A DNA stretch of 64,000 bases, from contig CAZMSD010000003.1 in the NCBI GenBank assembly GCA_964568855.1, forward strand, positions 25,848 to 89,847, written 5' to 3'. Below the pieces are notes generated by a model. That model searched no databases. It worked only from the letters and a program-made list of their open reading frames with translations, and was not told where the DNA came from. A program made the translations under genes and the position numbers. The stretch's first letter is position 1, and the number at the start of each line of letters is the position of its first letter. Of the stretch, positions 21,918 through 33,071 are shown one piece after another. The DNA comes from an uncultured Bacteroidaceae bacterium (lineage in GTDB: Bacteria > CAIWAD01).

Positions 21918-23609
21918 ATGCAAAGAGTCCTCCCCTGGTACTTCACCCTGCCCCTGGCGGTCCTGGTGCTGCTGACCCTGGCTTTTTCCGCCTGGGAGTA
22001 CGGCCGTACGCGGACCACCGTCCGCGAGCTGGCCCTGCGACAGGCGCAGGAGCTGCTGGGCCAGCTCGAACAGGCCCTGCTGAACTCCTCGCTGACCGAG
22101 GGCGCCCTGCTCGAGGCCCTGGAGGATCACCTGTTCACCGCGGCGTATTACGCGGCCGAGTTGCACGGAATCCGGCCGCTGGACGGGAGGGAGCTGGCCC
22201 GCATCGCGGCGCGCTCCGGCGTGCATCACATGGACCTCTTCCCCGGCGCCGGGGAGTCCGGAATCTGCAGCGCCCCGGGTCCCGAGGGAAACTGCCGGCC
22301 GCCGCGGAAGCTGGATCCGGCCCTCTACGGCGCCGGTTCCGGAGAGCAGGTCCTGGGTTTTTATCCCGGCGAAAGCGCCGGTGCGCGACACTACGGGGTG
22401 GCGGTGGCCCTGCCCGGCGGCGGAGCGGTGGTGGCCACCCTGGCCGCCGCGGAACTGCTCGACCTGCGCCGCAACACCGGATTGGGGGCCGCTCTCAGGG
22501 ACCTGCAGGAGCACGAGGAAGTGCGCTACGCTCTGATCGAGACCAAGACGGACCTGCTTGCGGCCACCGCGGACCTGCCCGAAGAGGTCACCGGCCCGCG
22601 GGACCCGCTCAGACAGAGGGCGTTTTCGGAGGACCGGGGAGGCGGAATCTTCAGGAGCCTGGGCGGCGAGCGGCTCTTCGAGAGCTATCTGCCCTATCGC
22701 GGGGGCAGCGGCACCATGCTGCGCATCGGCCTGCGCACGGCGCGCTTCGACGCCGCCCTGAGGCGCAGCCTATGGTCCCTGGCGCTGGGAGGAGCGCTGT
22801 TCATCGCACTGGCGACAGTACTCGTGGCCTGGCTTGTATCACGCCGGACTCTGCGCTACCTGGAGGGCGAGCGGCGCCGCATCGAGGCCGAGGTGCAGCG
22901 GCTCGAGCAGGAGCGCGAGCTGCGCGAGCGCTTGGCCGCCATGGGATCTCTGGCCGCGGGCGTGGCCCACGAGATCCGCAACCCGCTGAACACCATCTCC
23001 ATGGGCCTGCAGCGCCTGGAGCTGCGGGACGAAGGACCCGCGGGCGAGCCGGAGCTCCTGCGCGGCATGCGCGAAGAGGCCGGGCGCATCGAAGGCATAG
23101 TGCGCGAGTTCCTCGAATTCGCCCGGCCGGCCGTGGCCGATCTCCGTCCGGACGACCTGCGCGGACTGCTTGAGGAAGTACTCGTGCAGGTCCGGCCCGC
23201 CATGGAAGCCGCCTCGGTCGATTTGGACACCAGCCTGGAGAGCGTGCCGGCCTTCCGCTTCGACAGGAACCTCCTGCGCCAGGCGCTGTTGAACCTCCTG
23301 CGCAACGCCCAGGAGGCCGCCGCCCCGGACGGCGGGGACCGCGGGCGCGTGGAACTGGGCTGCACTTCCGGGGCGCAGGAAGTCCGTGTATCTGTCGCCG
23401 ACGACGGCCCGGGAATACCGGACTCGGAGCGGCGACGCGTCTTCGACTTGTATTACAGCACGAAAAAGGACGGAGCGGGAATCGGGCTGGCCGTGGTGCA
23501 CCGGATCGCGGCCGAACACGGAGGCCGGGTGGAACTGGAATCCCGGCCGGGCGAGGGCTGCCGTTTCACGCTGGTCCTCCCGCGAGGCAAGGAGAGCGCG
23601 AAACGATGA
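21918..23609 (+). CDS. Sensor histidine kinase (NtrB/ZraS-like) with a ~270-aa periplasmic sensor domain, partner of the sigma-54 activator.
   Basis: TM1 is MQRVLPWYFTLPLAVLVLLTLAF. A periplasmic region follows, then TM2 LALGGALFIALATVLVAWLV. The HisKA H-box is GVAHEIRNPLNTI and the HATPase motif is DDGPGIP...GIGLAVV. The stop overlaps the ATG of the next gene (ATGA). Confidence 0.85.
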   Translation: MQRVLPWYFTLPLAVLVLLTLAFSAWEYGRTRTTVRELALRQAQELLGQLEQALLNSSLTEGALLEALEDHLFTAAYYAAELHGIRPLDGRELARIAARSGVHHMDLFPGAGESGICSAPGPEGNCRPPRKLDPALYGAGSGEQVLGFYPGESAGARHYGVAVALPGGGAVVATLAAAELLDLRRNTGLGAALRDLQEHEEVRYALIETKTDLLAATADLPEEVTGPRDPLRQRAFSEDRGGGIFRSLGGERLFESYLPYRGGSGTMLRIGLRTARFDAALRRSLWSLALGGALFIALATVLVAWLVSRRTLRYLEGERRRIEAEVQRLEQERELRERLAAMGSLAAGVAHEIRNPLNTISMGLQRLELRDEGPAGEPELLRGMREEAGRIEGIVREFLEFARPAVADLRPDDLRGLLEEVLVQVRPAMEAASVDLDTSLESVPAFRFDRNLLRQALLNLLRNAQEAAAPDGGDRGRVELGCTSGAQEVRVSVADDGPGIPDSERRRVFDLYYSTKKDGAGIGLAVVHRIAAEHGGRVELESRPGEGCRFTLVLPRGKESAKR

Positions 23610-25003
23610 ATCACGCGGACCGGGGCGAGGAGTCCTGCACCGTACTGCTGGCCGACGACGAGAAACTGCAGCGGGAGACCCTGGCCGGTTTCCTGCGCGG
23701 CGCGGGCTACCGGGTGCTGGAAGCCTCCGACGGCCGGGAGGCCCTCGAAGCGGCGCGGCGCGAGACGGTGGACCTGGTACTCACCGACCTGCGCATGCCG
23801 GAGCTCGACGGACACGGCCTGCTGCGCGAGCTGAAAGGGATGAACCCCTCCGTAGCGGTGATCGTGATGACCGCCTACGGCACGGTCGAATCGGCCGTGG
23901 AGGCCATGCAGGCGGGTGCCTTCAGCTACCTGACCAAGCCCGTGGACCTCAAGGAGCTGGCCCTGCTTCTGGACCGCGCTCAGGAGCTGAGGGAACTCGT
24001 GCGCGAGAACCGCCGGCTCCGCGAGCGCCTGGGCGAGATCGAGGAAGCCGAGCTGGTGGCGCGGACTCCCGAGATGCGCGAGGTCCTGGGAGTCGTGTCG
24101 CGGGCCGCGCCGACGAAGGCTTCGGTGCTGATCACCGGCGAGTCGGGCACGGGCAAGGAGCTGATCGCCCGCGCGCTGCACGGGGCCTCGCCCCGCCACG
24201 CGGGCCCCTTCGTGGCGGTCAACCTGGCGGCGATCCCCGAAGCGCTCGTCGAGAGCGAGCTCTTCGGGCACGAAAAGGGAGCCTTCACGGGCGCTGCGGA
24301 GCGGCGCATCGGCCGCTTCGAGCGCGCCGACGGGGGCACGCTGTTCATCGACGAGGTGGGCGACATGCCCGCGTCGGCGCAGGTCAAGCTGCTGCGGGTG
24401 CTGCAGGAGCACCGCATCGAGCGCGTGGGCGGCGGCCGGCCGATTCCCGTGGACATCCGCGTGGCGGCGGCCACTCACCAGCCCCTGGAGGAGCTCGTCC
24501 GCGGGGGCCGCTTCCGCGAGGACCTGTATTACCGCCTGAACGTGATCAGGCTGAAGCTACCGCCACTGAGGGCGCGCCGGGAGGACATCCCCGAGCTGCT
24601 GGAACACTTCCTGGGCAAGTGTCGCGACGCGATCGGCAAGGAAGTGCGGGGCTTCGACCGCCGCGCCCTGGACCTGCTGATGAAGTATCGCTGGCCGGGC
24701 AACATCCGCGAGCTGGCCAACGCGGTTGAAAGCGCCGTGGTACTGGCCAGGCGGACTCTGATCAGCGCCGGGGACCTGCCCGAAGAGATCCGGCATGCAG
24801 GCGGCGCAGCCGGGCCGACGGACGATACCGGCGACCGGGACGAAGCCGCGACGCCCCTGCGCGAGCGCCTGGAGAGCTTCGAGAAAGCGGCGGTGCTGAA
24901 AGCGCTGGAGGATTGCGGGGGCAACCGCAGCAAGGCCGCGCGCAGACTGGGCCTGAGCGAAAAGAACATCCGCGATCGCCTGAAGCGCTGGCAACTGGGA
25001 TAG
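23606..25003 (+). CDS. Sigma-54-dependent response regulator (NtrC/ZraR family bacterial enhancer-binding protein).
   Basis: It has a receiver domain (LLADDE...LVLTDLRMPELDG). The AAA+ sigma-54 activator domain carries Walker A GESGTGKE and ESELFGHEKGAFTGA (a GAFTGA motif). The C-terminal Fis-type HTH is GNRSKAARRLGLSEKNIRDRLKR. Confidence 0.9.
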   Translation: MNHADRGEESCTVLLADDEKLQRETLAGFLRGAGYRVLEASDGREALEAARRETVDLVLTDLRMPELDGHGLLRELKGMNPSVAVIVMTAYGTVESAVEAMQAGAFSYLTKPVDLKELALLLDRAQELRELVRENRRLRERLGEIEEAELVARTPEMREVLGVVSRAAPTKASVLITGESGTGKELIARALHGASPRHAGPFVAVNLAAIPEALVESELFGHEKGAFTGAAERRIGRFERADGGTLFIDEVGDMPASAQVKLLRVLQEHRIERVGGGRPIPVDIRVAAATHQPLEELVRGGRFREDLYYRLNVIRLKLPPLRARREDIPELLEHFLGKCRDAIGKEVRGFDRRALDLLMKYRWPGNIRELANAVESAVVLARRTLISAGDLPEEIRHAGGAAGPTDDTGDRDEAATPLRERLESFEKAAVLKALEDCGGNRSKAARRLGLSEKNIRDRLKRWQLG

Positions 25004-25048
25004 AAATCGCCGTCCCGCCGGTGGGATCTTCGCGGACCGCATCGAATG

Positions 25049-32409: not shown

Positions 32410-32471
32410 ACGATTCGAACCGAAACGATAAACGACCGCTGACATACAACTGGAAACAAAAGGAGCACAGA

Positions 32472-33071
32472 ATGAAGATCATCCTCCTCGCCGCTCTCGG
32501 CCTGATGCTGGGCCTGGCGGTGCCCGATACCGAAGCGGGATGTCCTCCCGGATGCGACAAGGCCTGCTGCGCCGGCGTCCCGTCCGCTACTGCGACTGAG
32601 CATGAGCATCCCGGTCATTCCGCAGTGGAAGTGAAGCGGGGCGGAGCCGCGCCCGAACACCCCGCTGCCCCGGCTGAACTTCCCGTCCTCAAGGAGAGCT
32701 ATCCCTGGACCACCTGTCCCATCAGCGGCCTGGAGCTGGGATCCATGGGCGATCCCTATTCCATCGAGCTGGAGGGGCTGACCGTCAGACTCTGCTGCGA
32801 CGGCTGCGAGAAGAAGGCCCGGGCCAGGGCCGCGGAGATCACGGCCGATCTCAGGAAGGCAGTCATCGAGCGCGACTCCCGGGATTATCCCCTGGAGGAA
32901 TGCCTGACCTGCGGAATGCATCTCAAGGATGGACGCGGCCTGGACATGGTTCACGGCAGCACCATGGTGCGGCTCTGCGGTGAAATGTGCCGCGTCAGTT
33001 TCGAAGGGGATCCCGAGGCGCGGGTCCAGCAGGTCCTGCGAGCCCGGAACGAGCAGGCGAAGAGGCAGTAG
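32472..33071 (+). CDS. Periplasmic Cys-rich protein with two YHS-type metal-binding domains.
   Basis: An AGGAG RBS precedes the start. The signal peptide is MKIILLAALGLMLGLA. The N-terminal cluster is CPPGCDKACCAG. Two YHS-like modules follow (TCPISGLEL...RLCCDGCEKKA and CLTCGMHLKDG...RLCGEMCRVSFEGDPEA). The ORF track start at 32328 is too long. Confidence 0.65.
   Translation: MKIILLAALGLMLGLAVPDTEAGCPPGCDKACCAGVPSATATEHEHPGHSAVEVKRGGAAPEHPAAPAELPVLKESYPWTTCPISGLELGSMGDPYSIELEGLTVRLCCDGCEKKARARAAEITADLRKAVIERDSRDYPLEECLTCGMHLKDGRGLDMVHGSTMVRLCGEMCRVSFEGDPEARVQQVLRARNEQAKRQ

Follow-up and report, generated by a model that had tools for sequence, protein, structure and literature searches.

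A copper/silver-type efflux operon and a Cys-rich secreted protein in a putative sigma-54-dependent two-component regulon

Genes and features of the locus

In the 64-kb stretch of DNA analysed here (the window), a kinase gene is followed from 5' to 3' by an activator gene, promoter P1, a small ORF, tandem dyads, promoter P2 and the genes for an outer-membrane factor, a CusB-like adaptor, a CusA-like permease and a TRASH-like protein. Gene content and order were set by Pfam and NCBIfam searches, which confirmed the domains that the original prediction had claimed for the kinase, activator and pump genes.

21918..23609, + strand: sensor histidine kinase, 563 aa (Pfam and NCBIfam, HisKA and HATPase_c)
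23606..25003, + strand: NtrC-family sigma-54 enhancer-binding response regulator, 465 aa (Pfam, NCBIfam)
25049..25064, + strand: predicted sigma-54 promoter P1, TGGCAC-N5-TTGCA; predicted transcription start ~25075
25096..25521, + strand: small secreted protein, 141 aa, signal-peptide-like N-terminus; family without Pfam domain
25598..25636, no strand: predicted enhancer, two exact 18-bp dyads TTCGAC-N6-GTCGAA (2 exact matches, 0 expected)
25720..25735, + strand: predicted sigma-54 promoter P2, TGGCAT-N5-TTGCC; predicted transcription start ~25746
25786..27114, + strand: outer-membrane factor, OEP/TolC-family lipoprotein (Pfam OEP, E=1e-35)
27111..28538, + strand: CusB/CzcB-type periplasmic adaptor (Pfam HlyD_D23, E=2e-61; HMBD, E=4e-16)
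28528..32409, + strand: long CusA-like heavy-metal RND permease, 1293 aa (NCBIfam TIGR00914)
32472..33071, + strand: secreted Cys/His-rich protein with two TRASH/YHS-like C-x(n)-C-x3-C units (sub-threshold TRASH)
33180..33202, + strand: terminator-like hairpin with T-run (consensus scan), probable operon end

The locus had also been described as an island, a term we do not retain: its GC content is merely slightly raised (0.68-0.70 against 0.62-0.66), and mobility genes were found neither among the annotated ORFs nor among the genes called within ~10 kb on the matching contig.

The pump operon

The ORF of the outer-membrane factor opens at GTG 25738, just 3' of the -12 element of P2 (25731-25735) and 5' of the predicted transcription start; translation is likely to begin at ATG 25786 instead, which is followed by a lipobox-like signal sequence, MYRVPAIQFLLQMTVAALGCLWLLPAC. 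The adaptor, whose start overlaps the stop of the outer-membrane factor by 4 bp, has a barrel-sandwich domain of the CusB type and two N-terminal CPICGM (HMBD) motifs.

The permease scores 772 bits against TIGR00914 (CusA/CzcA; cut-off 701), and among solved structures that of E. coli CusA is nearest (E=1e-190). It belongs to a large family of ~1300-aa proteins (60-64% identity) and carries two inserts, one of ~105 aa (residues 541-645) in which a hydrophobicity scan finds four hydrophobic segments, and a periplasmic one of ~78 aa (residues 761-838). The CusA-type TM4 motif is retained, and CusA Met573, Met623 and Met672 align with M700, M750 and M876; with this methionine triad conserved and the family cut-off passed, the pump is CusA-like as predicted. 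Retention of the three-methionine site makes Cu(I)/Ag(I) the likely substrate.

For the last gene of the operon, ATG 32472, which is preceded by GGAG, is likely to be the start rather than 32328. Its product had been called a double-YHS protein, and this stands in part: two C-x(n)-C-x3-C units are present, but Pfam gives no significant YHS or TRASH match (top match TRASH, E=0.022), and the link is transitive, through a 236-aa protein of a related pump operon, L168 (BLASTP 1.8e-19), that in turn matches the YHS protein of L169 (2.5e-10). TRASH/YHS-type proteins recur in related long-CusA operons, and this one may possibly serve as a periplasmic metal chaperone. The pump genes overlap or are closely spaced, with no terminator before 33180. 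Since five of six sampled long-CusA operons lack an adjacent sigma-54 activator, the pump family does not appear to be generally under sigma-54 control.

The two-component pair

The kinase consists of two hydrophobic transmembrane segments on either side of a ~250-aa periplasmic double-Cache-like sensor, followed by HisKA and HATPase_c, and its stop overlaps the activator start by 4 bp. The pair had been predicted to be ZraSR-like, a description that fits just the transmitter, for which ZraS (9jfj, E=4.9e-38) is the nearest solved structure. The NCBIfam ZraS match spans the second transmembrane segment and the transmitter and excludes the sensor, and we rejected ZraS as the identity of the kinase; ZraSR was likewise rejected for the pair, as the scores for the ZraS, ZraR, AtoS, AtoC and NtrC equivalogs all lie far under their cut-offs.

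An AlphaFold model of kinase residues 36-290 (pLDDT 89, pTM 0.77) matches the dCache domains of Tlp3, Mlp24, PctA and DctB in Foldseek with a probability of 1.0. Judged by this model, the sensor is a divergent double-Cache fold, and a rare one: a search of 1.84 billion proteins gave only 115 cluster representatives (E<=1e-3). The ligands of dCache domains are usually small organic molecules, and the Foldseek matches include amino-acid and organic-acid receptors. Alignment of the sensor with its relatives reveals no conserved Cys, His or Met in the periplasmic domain, while a Cys pair, C117 and C126, lies in a variable loop of the window's sensor; metal sensing by the kinase is unsupported.

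The activator is made up of REC, Sigma54_activat (Pfam E=6e-70) and HTH_8 (Fis-type HTH) domains, with the GAFTGA motif in its AAA+ domain (ELFGHEKGAFTGA), and scores under every NCBIfam equivalog cut-off. Its gene is the sole sigma-54 activator gene in the window, and it very probably drives the sigma-54 transcription predicted at this locus.

The small secreted protein and its module in other lineages

Seven of the 10 Cys residues of the small protein fall within its last 19 residues (tail SCSCTCGCPRCRCRHC); it also has two DxDxDG-type loops and a conserved PDS..DS.AFRxWWE..AW..W helical region. Neither Pfam nor NCBIfam matches this ORF, the Shine-Dalgarno sequence at its 5' end is weak, and a structure model is poor (pLDDT 67). 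The protein belongs nonetheless to a conserved, unannotated family of ~36 proteins, in which it is the only one with a Cys-rich tail among 27 members read (17 aligned), the others usually having Gly-rich tails; the tail here is metallothionein-like and replaces the usual Gly-rich one. As had been predicted for the protein in the ZraP position, it appears unrelated in sequence to ZraP: LTXXQ, CpxP, Spy and ZraP signatures were searched for, and none was found.

Members of the family were always encountered beside this two-component system. Homologues of the small protein, with 29-49% identity, the conserved motifs and signal peptides, are encoded next to orthologous kinase-activator pairs in six other lineages (L084, L088 and L171-L174), while a seventh, L089, keeps the activator, the dyads and related secreted proteins with no kinase gene alongside; a Delongbacteria MAG is among the module lineages. 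The kinases share 39% identity over the full length, including the sensor, and the activator orthologues 54-60% identity with the HTH conserved, against 40-53% for generic NtrC-family matches. The dyad consensus and the presence of sigma-54 promoters are likewise shared. The relatives differ in the Gly/Arg/Asn-rich tails of their small proteins, and they have a ~350-aa partner protein and extra sigma-54-driven DGDG-repeat proteins but no pump. The partner protein is absent from the window, where the pump operon occupies its position. In all seven relatives the regulon holds no metal gene, only Gly-rich secreted proteins and the ~350-aa protein.

Sigma-54 promoters and tandem dyads

TGGCACAAGGTTTGCA at 25049 is the sole match to TGGCAY-N5-TTGCW in the 64 kb, with 0.06 expected. 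In a GG/GC-anchored scan, P1 scored 11/11 and P2 10/11, against a background of ~1.6 sites of at least 10/11 expected on both strands of the whole window (128 kb of strand). The two promoters predicted at 25049 and 25720 thus rank as the best two + strand sites in the window, P2 being second; both lie directly 3' of the activator gene, are intergenic and are on the correct strand. The orientation and distance of P2 fit both the dyads and the pump operon, whose ATG is ~65 bp further 3'.

The palindrome array of the original prediction is likewise present, as two exact copies at 25598-25615 and 25619-25636, whose starts are 21 bp apart; the centre of the pair lies ~104 bp 5' of the -24 element of P2. 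The right arm of the first dyad and the left arm of the second can form a weak hairpin, which a terminator scan flagged. No dyad is recognisable upstream of P1, the only strong ones lying 550 bp downstream of it, so that the case for P1 depending on the activator is made by synteny and by the promoters of orthologous loci. Sigma-54 sites stand 5' of the small-protein gene in L172, L173 and L174 (10/11, 10/11 and 11/11), and a weaker sigma-54-like site, its -12 GC missing, does so in L171. The P1-position promoter of L174 has no upstream dyad, the same arrangement as in the window.

Tandem dyads accompany sigma-54 promoters in all seven lineages, with 20-22 bp spacing and ~60-240 bp upstream of the sigma-54 sites, and in L084 and L088 a relaxed dyad pattern has no other match in ~20 kb. 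This recurrence in orthologous loci is the strongest argument that P2 of the pump would answer to the adjacent activator.

A putative regulon with a metal-export branch

We suggest, with a probability of roughly 65%, that the kinase, the NtrC-family activator, the two sigma-54 promoters, the small secreted protein and the pump operon form a sigma-54-dependent two-component regulon. The membrane kinase, through its periplasmic double-Cache sensor, would phosphorylate the activator, which would bind the two dyads, two helical turns apart, and from ~104 bp upstream remodel sigma-54 RNA polymerase at P2. This would turn on the four-gene operon, which would most likely export Cu(I)/Ag(I) from the envelope. 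The consensus promoter P1 would drive the small secreted protein, presumably the ancestral target of this two-component family. We infer the dependence of both promoters on the activator, its binding to the dyads and the Cu/Ag substrate from sequence comparison; the inducing signal would be a metal or envelope stress caused by a metal, and this is the weakest step. The original interpretation of the locus is partly sustained: the recurrence of the dyads beside sigma-54 promoters speaks for control of P2 by this activator, P1 has no dyad upstream of its own, and the regulons of the relatives are free of pump genes.

The Cys-rich tail and the pump are specific to this lineage, and because the regulon of every relative lacks metal genes, the metal-resistance role would be a lineage-specific addition. 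If so, a copper/silver-type pump and a Cys-rich secreted protein have been placed under a little-known sigma-54 two-component system that in related bacteria controls small secreted proteins without a pump, a rewired stress circuit of a kind that is itself already known.

A serious alternative, though a distinctly less probable one, is that the circuit is real but senses a general envelope condition or another ligand, the pump having been inserted into its regulon. The dCache domain would then bind a small molecule or the secreted small protein, the pump would be induced by a non-metal cue or indirectly by metal damage, and the ancestral job would be the induction of Gly-rich secreted proteins and the ~350-aa envelope protein. 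The metal-free regulons of all seven relatives, the fold that the sensor shares with amino-acid and organic-acid receptors and the lack of a conserved metal-ligand residue in its alignment favour such a sensor. ZraPSR and Cpx provide a precedent, being envelope-stress systems that metals merely trigger. On the other hand, three lineage-specific changes indicate soft metals, namely the Cys-rich tail, the CusA-type pump with its HMBD adaptor and TRASH protein, and the sensor's Cys pair, and it would be wasteful to tie a Cu/Ag pump to a non-metal signal.

We consider it improbable that the pump escapes this activator and answers to a regulator from another locus, with its transcription starting at a sigma-70-type promoter or arising by read-through, and with P2 and the dyads coincidental or having some other role, for example as a weak terminator or attenuator of the small gene. 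P2 departs from consensus in its final base (TTGCC), the terminator scan picks up 25610-25624, an adjacent activator is missing from most of the long-CusA operons sampled, and promoters of the sigma-70 type could have been missed. However, the flagged hairpin has just 6 pairs and a poor T-run, and in L084, L088, L173 and L174 the dyads likewise precede sigma-54 promoters with no gene ending in the vicinity; two exact dyads at 21 bp are not expected by chance, and although few high-scoring sigma-54 sites are expected in the window, one of them, P2, lies close to the dyads and to the ATG of the operon. Least probable is a spurious small ORF, with P1 then driving another transcript, for instance a leader RNA or that of the pump operon itself: the missing domain match, the weak Shine-Dalgarno sequence and the plentiful overlapping ORFs of this GC-rich window would allow it, but in six other lineages homologues follow the kinase-activator pair just as it does here, and Rfam shows no family in the region.

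Comparison with known systems

The predicted analogy with zraSR-zraP is apt in that a sigma-54 two-component system adjoins a small secreted-protein gene, a synteny kept in the six other lineages. Like ZraPSR of E. coli and Salmonella, the locus combines a periplasm-sensing kinase and an NtrC-family activator with a gene under a sigma-54 promoter that encodes a small periplasmic protein, the tail of which is of low complexity and could bind metal. The systems are nevertheless not orthologous: the window's sensor is double-Cache, its genes are co-linear rather than divergent, and it adds a tripartite RND pump that has a predicted enhancer and promoter to itself.

That sigma-54 should control metal resistance is not without precedent. 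CorSR of Myxococcus xanthus is a published sigma-54 two-component system controlling copper resistance; its periplasm-sensing kinase and its response regulator have been studied experimentally and act on a cluster (curA) with copper-tolerance genes behind several putative sigma-54 promoters (PMC3707914). Its targets differ, comprising a multicopper oxidase and also a P1B ATPase but not an RND pump; CorS has a HAMP domain and a sensor of another kind; and for the curA cluster a homologue of the small secreted protein is not described (PMC3707914).

With E. coli CusCFBA the pump shares the outer-membrane factor, the adaptor and the CusA-type permease with its methionine triad. In contrast to CusA, the 1293-aa permease carries four additional hydrophobic segments inserted between TM6 and TM7, along with the 78-aa periplasmic insert; the adaptor has HMBD motifs, a TRASH/YHS-like protein is found instead of CusF, and the regulator is a sigma-54 activator, whereas CusR is OmpR-type.

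Two further genomes, L170 and L009, place sigma-54 activators of unrelated two-component systems beside heavy-metal RND pumps. L170 is a copper cluster in a Krumholzibacteriia MAG (GCA_041390085.1), ordered as dCache kinase, activator, two TTGAAA-N5-TTTCAA dyads, a sigma-54-like site and an operon for an HMBD protein, CopA, a cupredoxin, an outer-membrane factor, an adaptor and a long RND permease. Its activator is just 40% identical to the window's, its dyads differ in sequence, its kinase is recognised by Pfam (dCache_1), and its operon has CopA, the cupredoxin and the HMBD protein in addition but not the small DGDG/WWE protein. The overall plan is nonetheless the same: tandem dyads and a sigma-54-like site follow the kinase and activator genes, and the last three genes of the operon encode an outer-membrane factor, an HMBD adaptor and a long CusA-like permease, which is 62% identical to that of the window.

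Organization of the locus

Seven co-directional genes on the + strand come after a divergently oriented histidine ammonia-lyase gene; they encode a two-component system, a small secreted protein, an RND pump and a further secreted protein.

Genes of the locus and the neighbouring hutH (window coordinates, strand, product)
20232-21836, -, histidine ammonia-lyase (hutH)
21918-23609, +, histidine kinase, 563 aa
23606-25003, +, response regulator (the activator), 465 aa, REC + Sigma54_activat + Fis-type HTH
25096-25521, +, small ORF, 141 aa (the small protein)
gene 4 of 7, +, OEP-family outer-membrane factor
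gene 5 of 7, +, CusB/CzcB-type adaptor with two CPICGM heavy-metal-binding motifs
28528-32409, +, RND permease, 1293 aa (long CusA)
32472-33071, +, secreted Cys/His-rich protein, 199 aa (the last protein)

There is a 4-bp overlap between the kinase and activator genes, and the three pump genes likewise overlap each other. In a consensus scan of the locus no terminator-like site was found 5' of 33180; with none between the small-protein gene and the pump operon, transcripts starting ahead of the former may read through into the latter. An Rfam scan of 21000-34000 gave no match. On JGI contig Ga0120401_1000113 (L001), the kinase, activator, small protein, outer-membrane factor, adaptor and permease are all identical to those of the window, and the TRASH-like last protein is 97.5% identical; since it alone differs, the last gene appears to be the most variable part among near-identical strains.

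The label 'island', used in the original prediction, is too strong. Just upstream of the locus, beyond hutH, an ArsR/SmtB-family metalloregulator gene (19675-20010, -) adjoins an arsenite methyltransferase gene (18800-19612, -; 362 bits, cut-off 263), a pair that makes up a second metal(loid)-related unit close to the locus. A separate heavy-metal RND pair of canonical length is found at 192-4886 (+), with a CzcB-like adaptor of 516 aa and a CusA/CzcA-family permease of 1031 aa (1180 bits); the scan found no sigma-54 site of at least 10/11 near it. A PrkA / YhbH-like / SpoVR-like three-gene cluster (33512-38454, +) directly follows the pump operon, and type IX secretion (T9SS) sorting domains are encoded on the contig, a hint of membership in the FCB group. 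The 64-kb window does not include rpoN.

Two predicted sigma-54 promoters and their proposed activator

The site TGGCACAAGGTTTGCA at 25049, which we call P1 and which precedes the small-protein gene, is the sole match to TGGCAY-N5-TTGCW in 64 kb, where 0.06 would be expected. When the scan was anchored on the invariant GG and GC, P1 scored 11/11 and the site TGGCATCCTCTTTGCC at 25720 (P2), which precedes the pump operon, scored 10/11; these are the top two + strand sites, set against about 1.6 sites of at least 10/11 in shuffled sequence over both strands of the whole window. Both are intergenic, oriented towards the downstream genes, and located 3' of the only activator gene in the window. 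At the level of sequence they have the features expected of sigma-54 promoters, namely the -24 GG, the -12 GC, exact spacing and agreement with TGGCAC-N5-TTGCW, and equivalent sites are present in orthologous loci. A third strong sigma-54-like site, TGGCACGAGGCTTGCG (45926-45941, -; 10/11), precedes by about 150 bp an endonuclease III-like gene (45136-45777, -; HhH-GPD and Fe-S motif), which would be an odd sigma-54 target; there is no activator gene near this site.

The activator is an NtrC-class response-regulator enhancer-binding protein (Pfam: REC 1e-30, Sigma54_activat 6e-70, Fis-type HTH 6e-12) and its sequence contains the GAFTGA loop. Orthologues could not be drawn from a genome scan with the activator alone: the best 80 matches were generic NtrC-family proteins of 40-53% identity, a single one of which (L009) has an RND pump nearby, and loci from this set were used as negative controls. 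In a metagenome scan with a two-sequence activator alignment, the orthologous loci L088 and L089 were among the matches listed; the window's own contig was not among them. Activators of the orthologous loci are 54-60% identical to that of the window and share the HTH sequence GGN(R/K)(S/T)E(A/T)ARRLGxSxKxIRxRLK(R/K)W, with LL for RL in L174.

Tandem dyads as a phylogenetic footprint of a predicted operator

The palindrome TTCGAC-N6-GTCGAA occurs exactly twice in the window, at 25598 and 25619, with 0 expected. Its two copies have their common centre ~104 bp ahead of the P2 -24 element, the usual place for the enhancer of an NtrC-class activator. Being paired, within ~80-200 bp upstream of the -24 element and conserved along with orthologues of the activator, these dyads fit what is expected of an enhancer and constitute the activator's predicted operator. 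Tandem dyads of the same consensus, 20-22 bp apart from start to start, are found in intergenic DNA upstream of sigma-54 sites in all seven orthologous loci.

Tandem dyads and sigma-54 sites in orthologous loci (locus coordinates; - marks the minus strand)
L084: dyads 6031 and 6052; sigma-54 site 6213
L088: dyads 7469 and 7490; sigma-54 sites 7613 (+) and 7251 (-)
L089: dyads 13329 and 13351; sigma-54 site 13267 (-)
L089, second pair: dyads 16269 and 16291; sigma-54 site 16207 (-)
L171: dyads 6823 and 6844; sigma-54 site 6944
L172: dyads 6649 and 6671; sigma-54 site 6747
L173: dyads 6839 and 6859; sigma-54 site 6960
L173, second pair: dyads 3571 and 3592; sigma-54 site 3462 (-)
L174: dyads 3656 and 3677; sigma-54 site 3547 (-)

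A relaxed dyad pattern gave no further hit in the ~20 kb of L084 and L088, and when all 177 fetched loci (2.4 Mb) were searched for tandem pairs whose scores add up to 19 or more out of 24, these were confined to the orthologous group. The tandem dyads are a phylogenetic footprint of what we predict to be the operator of the activator. This footprint is our main reason for accepting control of P2, and through it of the pump operon, by this activator, and the comparative evidence on dyads and promoters largely supports the regulatory reading of the original prediction, in which the activator commands a sigma-54 regulon that includes the pump. The observation itself of a sigma-54 locus is confirmed, with both promoters, the exact dyads, the GAFTGA-bearing activator and a CusA-like pump all in place.

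For P1, a scan with a position weight matrix derived from six sites found no recognizable dyad upstream; the strong dyads lie 550 bp downstream of it, and L174 is in the same situation. Enhancers of the NtrC class can act from a distance and from downstream. P1 may be controlled either by an enhancer acting at a distance from downstream or by weak, undetected sites. A degenerate dyad, TTCGCGGACCGCATCGAA at 25029-25046 (9/12 positions), abuts the -24 element of P1, a geometry atypical for an enhancer. A 14-bit matrix site at 25201-25218 (TTCGTCGACCTGGACGGG) consists of the codons of the conserved FVDLDG motif; its likeness to the operator is probably a coincidence, though it falls inside a proposed target gene of the activator. 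As operators of P1, both were judged non-regulatory or uninterpretable. In L084 and L088 one sigma-54 promoter stands ahead of the whole cluster, whereas there is no such site upstream of the kinase-activator pair in the window.

The kinase and its predicted sensor

To call the pair ZraSR-like, as had been proposed, is too strong. The kinase scored 176 bits against a cut-off of 479 for the ZraS equivalog NF007688, and aligned to profile positions 177-452 only, which cover TM2 and the transmitter; the activator scored 433 bits against 760 for the ZraR equivalog NF007689, less than it scored for AtoC (499 vs 714) and NtrC (475 vs 559), which it also fails. The NCBIfam models nearest to the kinase transmitter are those of AtoS and ZraS, with all equivalog scores far under the cut-offs; among solved chains, ZraS 9jfj comes closest (E=4.9e-38). 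Because the equivalog scores are this low and the match to ZraS lacks the periplasmic part, we do not consider the kinase to be ZraS.

An AlphaFold model of kinase residues 36-290 (20 sequences; pLDDT 89, pTM 0.77) begins with a long helix, after which come two alpha/beta modules, in the order H, beta5, H, beta5, H. Foldseek matched this model to the double-Cache ligand-binding domains of Tlp3, Mlp24/37, PctA and DctB with probability 1.0 and TM 0.4-0.5. With its N-terminal long helix and two PDC modules, the modelled sensor has the make-up of a double-Cache (dCache) domain; the Pfam dCache models did not detect it in the kinase. The domain is rare: in a set of 1.84 billion proteins, 115 cluster representatives match it at E<=1e-3. 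Across seven orthologues no Cys, His or Met of the sensor is conserved, and a Cys pair in a variable loop (C117, C126) is found in the kinase of the window only.

The pump and the last gene

The permease passes the CusA/CzcA model TIGR00914 (772.5 bits vs 701.45), in three stretches because of two inserts that account for its extra length: residues 541-645 (~105 aa), with four hydrophobic segments between TM6 and TM7, and residues 761-838 (~78 aa), which are periplasmic. Of the solved structures, E. coli CusA is nearest to it (E=1e-190, compared with 1e-116 for ZneA). A phmmer alignment to 3k07 places M700, M750 and M876 at CusA M573, M623 and M672, which in the published CusA structures form the three-methionine Cu(I)/Ag(I) site. 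TM4 reads AIGTMVDMGIVVSEN against AVGAMVDAAIVMIEN in CusA, and is of the CusA type rather than carrying the DFG-DGA-VEN motif. Judged by these residues, the permease belongs to the CusA-type (monovalent Cu/Ag) subgroup. The adaptor scored 105 bits against a cut-off of 390 for the CusB model NF007303 and passes only the generic RND model TIGR01730 (123 vs 95); Pfam assigns it a CusB-type barrel-sandwich domain and HMBD.

The long CusA of ~1300 aa represents a large family, with at least 120 matches listed at 59-64% identity and source labels from several phylum-level lineages (Desulfobacterota-type lineages, Planctomycetota, Latescibacterota, Krumholzibacteriia, Calditrichaceae and others). There is no solved structure of this form, and its extra membrane segments would alter the canonical 12-TM RND architecture.

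The last protein had been described as a double-YHS protein. It does have two C-x(n)-C-x3-C units, but the label goes too far: YHS (PF04945) gave no match, and the best hit was TRASH at E=0.022, below the gathering score. The connection to YHS is a transitive one, from the last protein to a three-repeat protein heading a related long-CusA operon (BLASTP 1.8e-19), and from there to a YHS-domain protein of another such operon (2.5e-10; YHS taken from a precomputed Pfam table). The last protein may act as a periplasmic metal chaperone.

The small secreted protein and an older regulon

As a query, the small protein alone returned one distant homologue, encoded directly 3' of a kinase-activator pair orthologous to that of the window (kinase 39% identical over its full length, including the sensor; activator 59%). 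A three-sequence profile search then gave about 36 family members. In relatives the architecture comprises two DxDxDG-type loops, a PDS..DS.xFRxWWE..W..AW..W region and a Gly/Arg/Asn-rich tail. In the window, Cys replaces the usual G.N of the first loop, and the tail is SCSCTCGCPRCRCRHC. Of the 27 family members read (17 of them aligned), this protein alone has that ending; in the others the tails are mostly Gly-rich and none is Cys-rich. That the Cys-rich tail is a frameshifted Gly-rich one was ruled out by reading the other two frames.

In the original prediction the protein in the ZraP position was held to be unrelated to ZraP, and this stands: an HMM check against the ZraP/CpxP/Spy families (LTXXQ, CpxP, Spy and Metal_resist models; 18 family members scanned) gave no Pfam match at E<=1, with weak FG-GAP (calcium-loop) hits only. 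A PDB profile search with the family returned Gly-linker artefacts only. The AlphaFold model is poor (pLDDT 67, pTM 0.29) and has two short helices in the WWE region; a two-helix hairpin is in any case not diagnostic of the Spy/CpxP fold.

Genes for kinase, activator, small protein and a ~350-aa protein follow one another in the same order in L088 and in all four further neighbourhoods (L171-L174). This ~340-390-aa partner, 25-34% identical among loci and with a signal-like N-terminus, is possibly an envelope protein, and in L084, L088, L089 and L171-L174 it is always putatively co-transcribed with the DGDG/WWE small protein under sigma-54 control. A second secreted family carries the calcium-loop-like repeat FVDxDGDGxNDNAPDxDGDGIPNGxD in two or three copies, along with Gly-rich linkers; in the relatives' regulons each of its genes is preceded by its own predicted sigma-54 promoter and dyad pair. 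Pfam at E<=1 gave nothing useful for the partner or the repeat proteins.

Examples of putative sigma-54 targets in relatives (locus coordinates)
L088: 11953-13023, ~340-390-aa partner
L088: 6751-7194, -, FVDxDGDG-repeat protein
L089: 11370-12545, -, ~340-390-aa partner
L089: 12551-13246 and 15503-16120, both -, FVDxDGDG-repeat proteins
L173: 2944-3369, -, FVDxDGDG-repeat protein
L174: 3065-3469, -, FVDxDGDG-repeat protein

The relatives' putative sigma-54 targets are thus the small secreted protein, its partner and further secreted repeat proteins, with no metal-resistance gene among them. In the window the partner is absent and the pump operon, with its own dyads and promoter, stands in its place. 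Since both the pump and the Cys-rich tail are specific to the window's lineage, and no metal gene is among the relatives' targets, we read the metal flavour as something that this lineage added to an older circuit. The locus is best seen as belonging to a sigma-54 two-component family, as yet uncharacterised, whose representative in this lineage captured a CusCBA-type pump while its small partner gained a Cys-rich tail. The sole clearly labelled source of the module is a Delongbacteria MAG.

We can speculate, at rather long odds, that the module is an undescribed envelope-signalling system of uncultured lineages in which the small protein is a co-sensor docking on the double-Cache kinase, its interchangeable low-complexity tail (Gly/Arg, Gly/Asn, Gly/Met, here Cys-rich) setting the signal. 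If so, the lineage of the window would have made a Cu/Ag sensor by swapping in a metallothionein-like tail and by subjecting a CusCBA-type pump to the same enhancer, and signal specificity would evolve in an accessory protein, not in the kinase.

None of these findings overturns current understanding. They reveal a conserved, unannotated sigma-54 module in uncultured lineages that have been little studied. In it a rare double-Cache kinase and an activator are accompanied by a secreted protein of variable tail and by a ~350-aa partner, and comparative data alone suffice to predict its operator. They also offer a natural example of regulon rewiring, from partner protein to pump and from Gly-rich to Cys-rich tail.

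Comparison with known systems

To our knowledge, the heavy-metal RND pumps characterised so far answer to two-component systems of the OmpR type, to MerR-type regulators or to ECF sigma factors, and in the open-access literature we found no published sigma-54-controlled heavy-metal RND pump. An adjacent sigma-54 two-component system was present in one of six sampled long-CusA neighbourhoods, that of a Krumholzibacteriia MAG (L170), where a dCache kinase and an activator are followed by two TTGAAA-N5-TTTCAA dyads 22 bp apart, the sigma-54-like site TGGCACGCCGGATGCG, an HMBD protein, CopA, a cupredoxin, an outer-membrane factor, an adaptor and a long RND permease; the other five had no adjacent activator. 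In L009, a Desulfobacteraceae MAG, the kinase-activator pair is divergent from a heavy-metal RND operon, and sigma-54 sites precede the outer-membrane factor and adaptor genes. Taken together, these neighbourhoods suggest that the arrangement is recurrent but in the minority, having arisen with unrelated activators. The present locus is a clean, testable case of predicted sigma-54 control of an RND pump, with promoter, predicted 18-bp operator pair and activator defined, and L170 and L009 are two more.

Experimental sigma-54 control of copper resistance has been described for CorSR of M. xanthus, which has a multicopper oxidase and CopA as its targets (PMC3707914). For C. metallidurans, sigma-54 dependence of HmzRS or ZniRS is not borne out by the published accounts checked, and the method of one study found no RpoN promoter motifs there. 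With respect to E. coli zraSR-zraP, the proposed positional logic holds, in that a small periplasmic protein lies under a neighbouring sigma-54 two-component system; ZraP and the small protein described here, while not of the same family, are alike in position and logic, both being small, periplasmic and equipped with a low-complexity tail.
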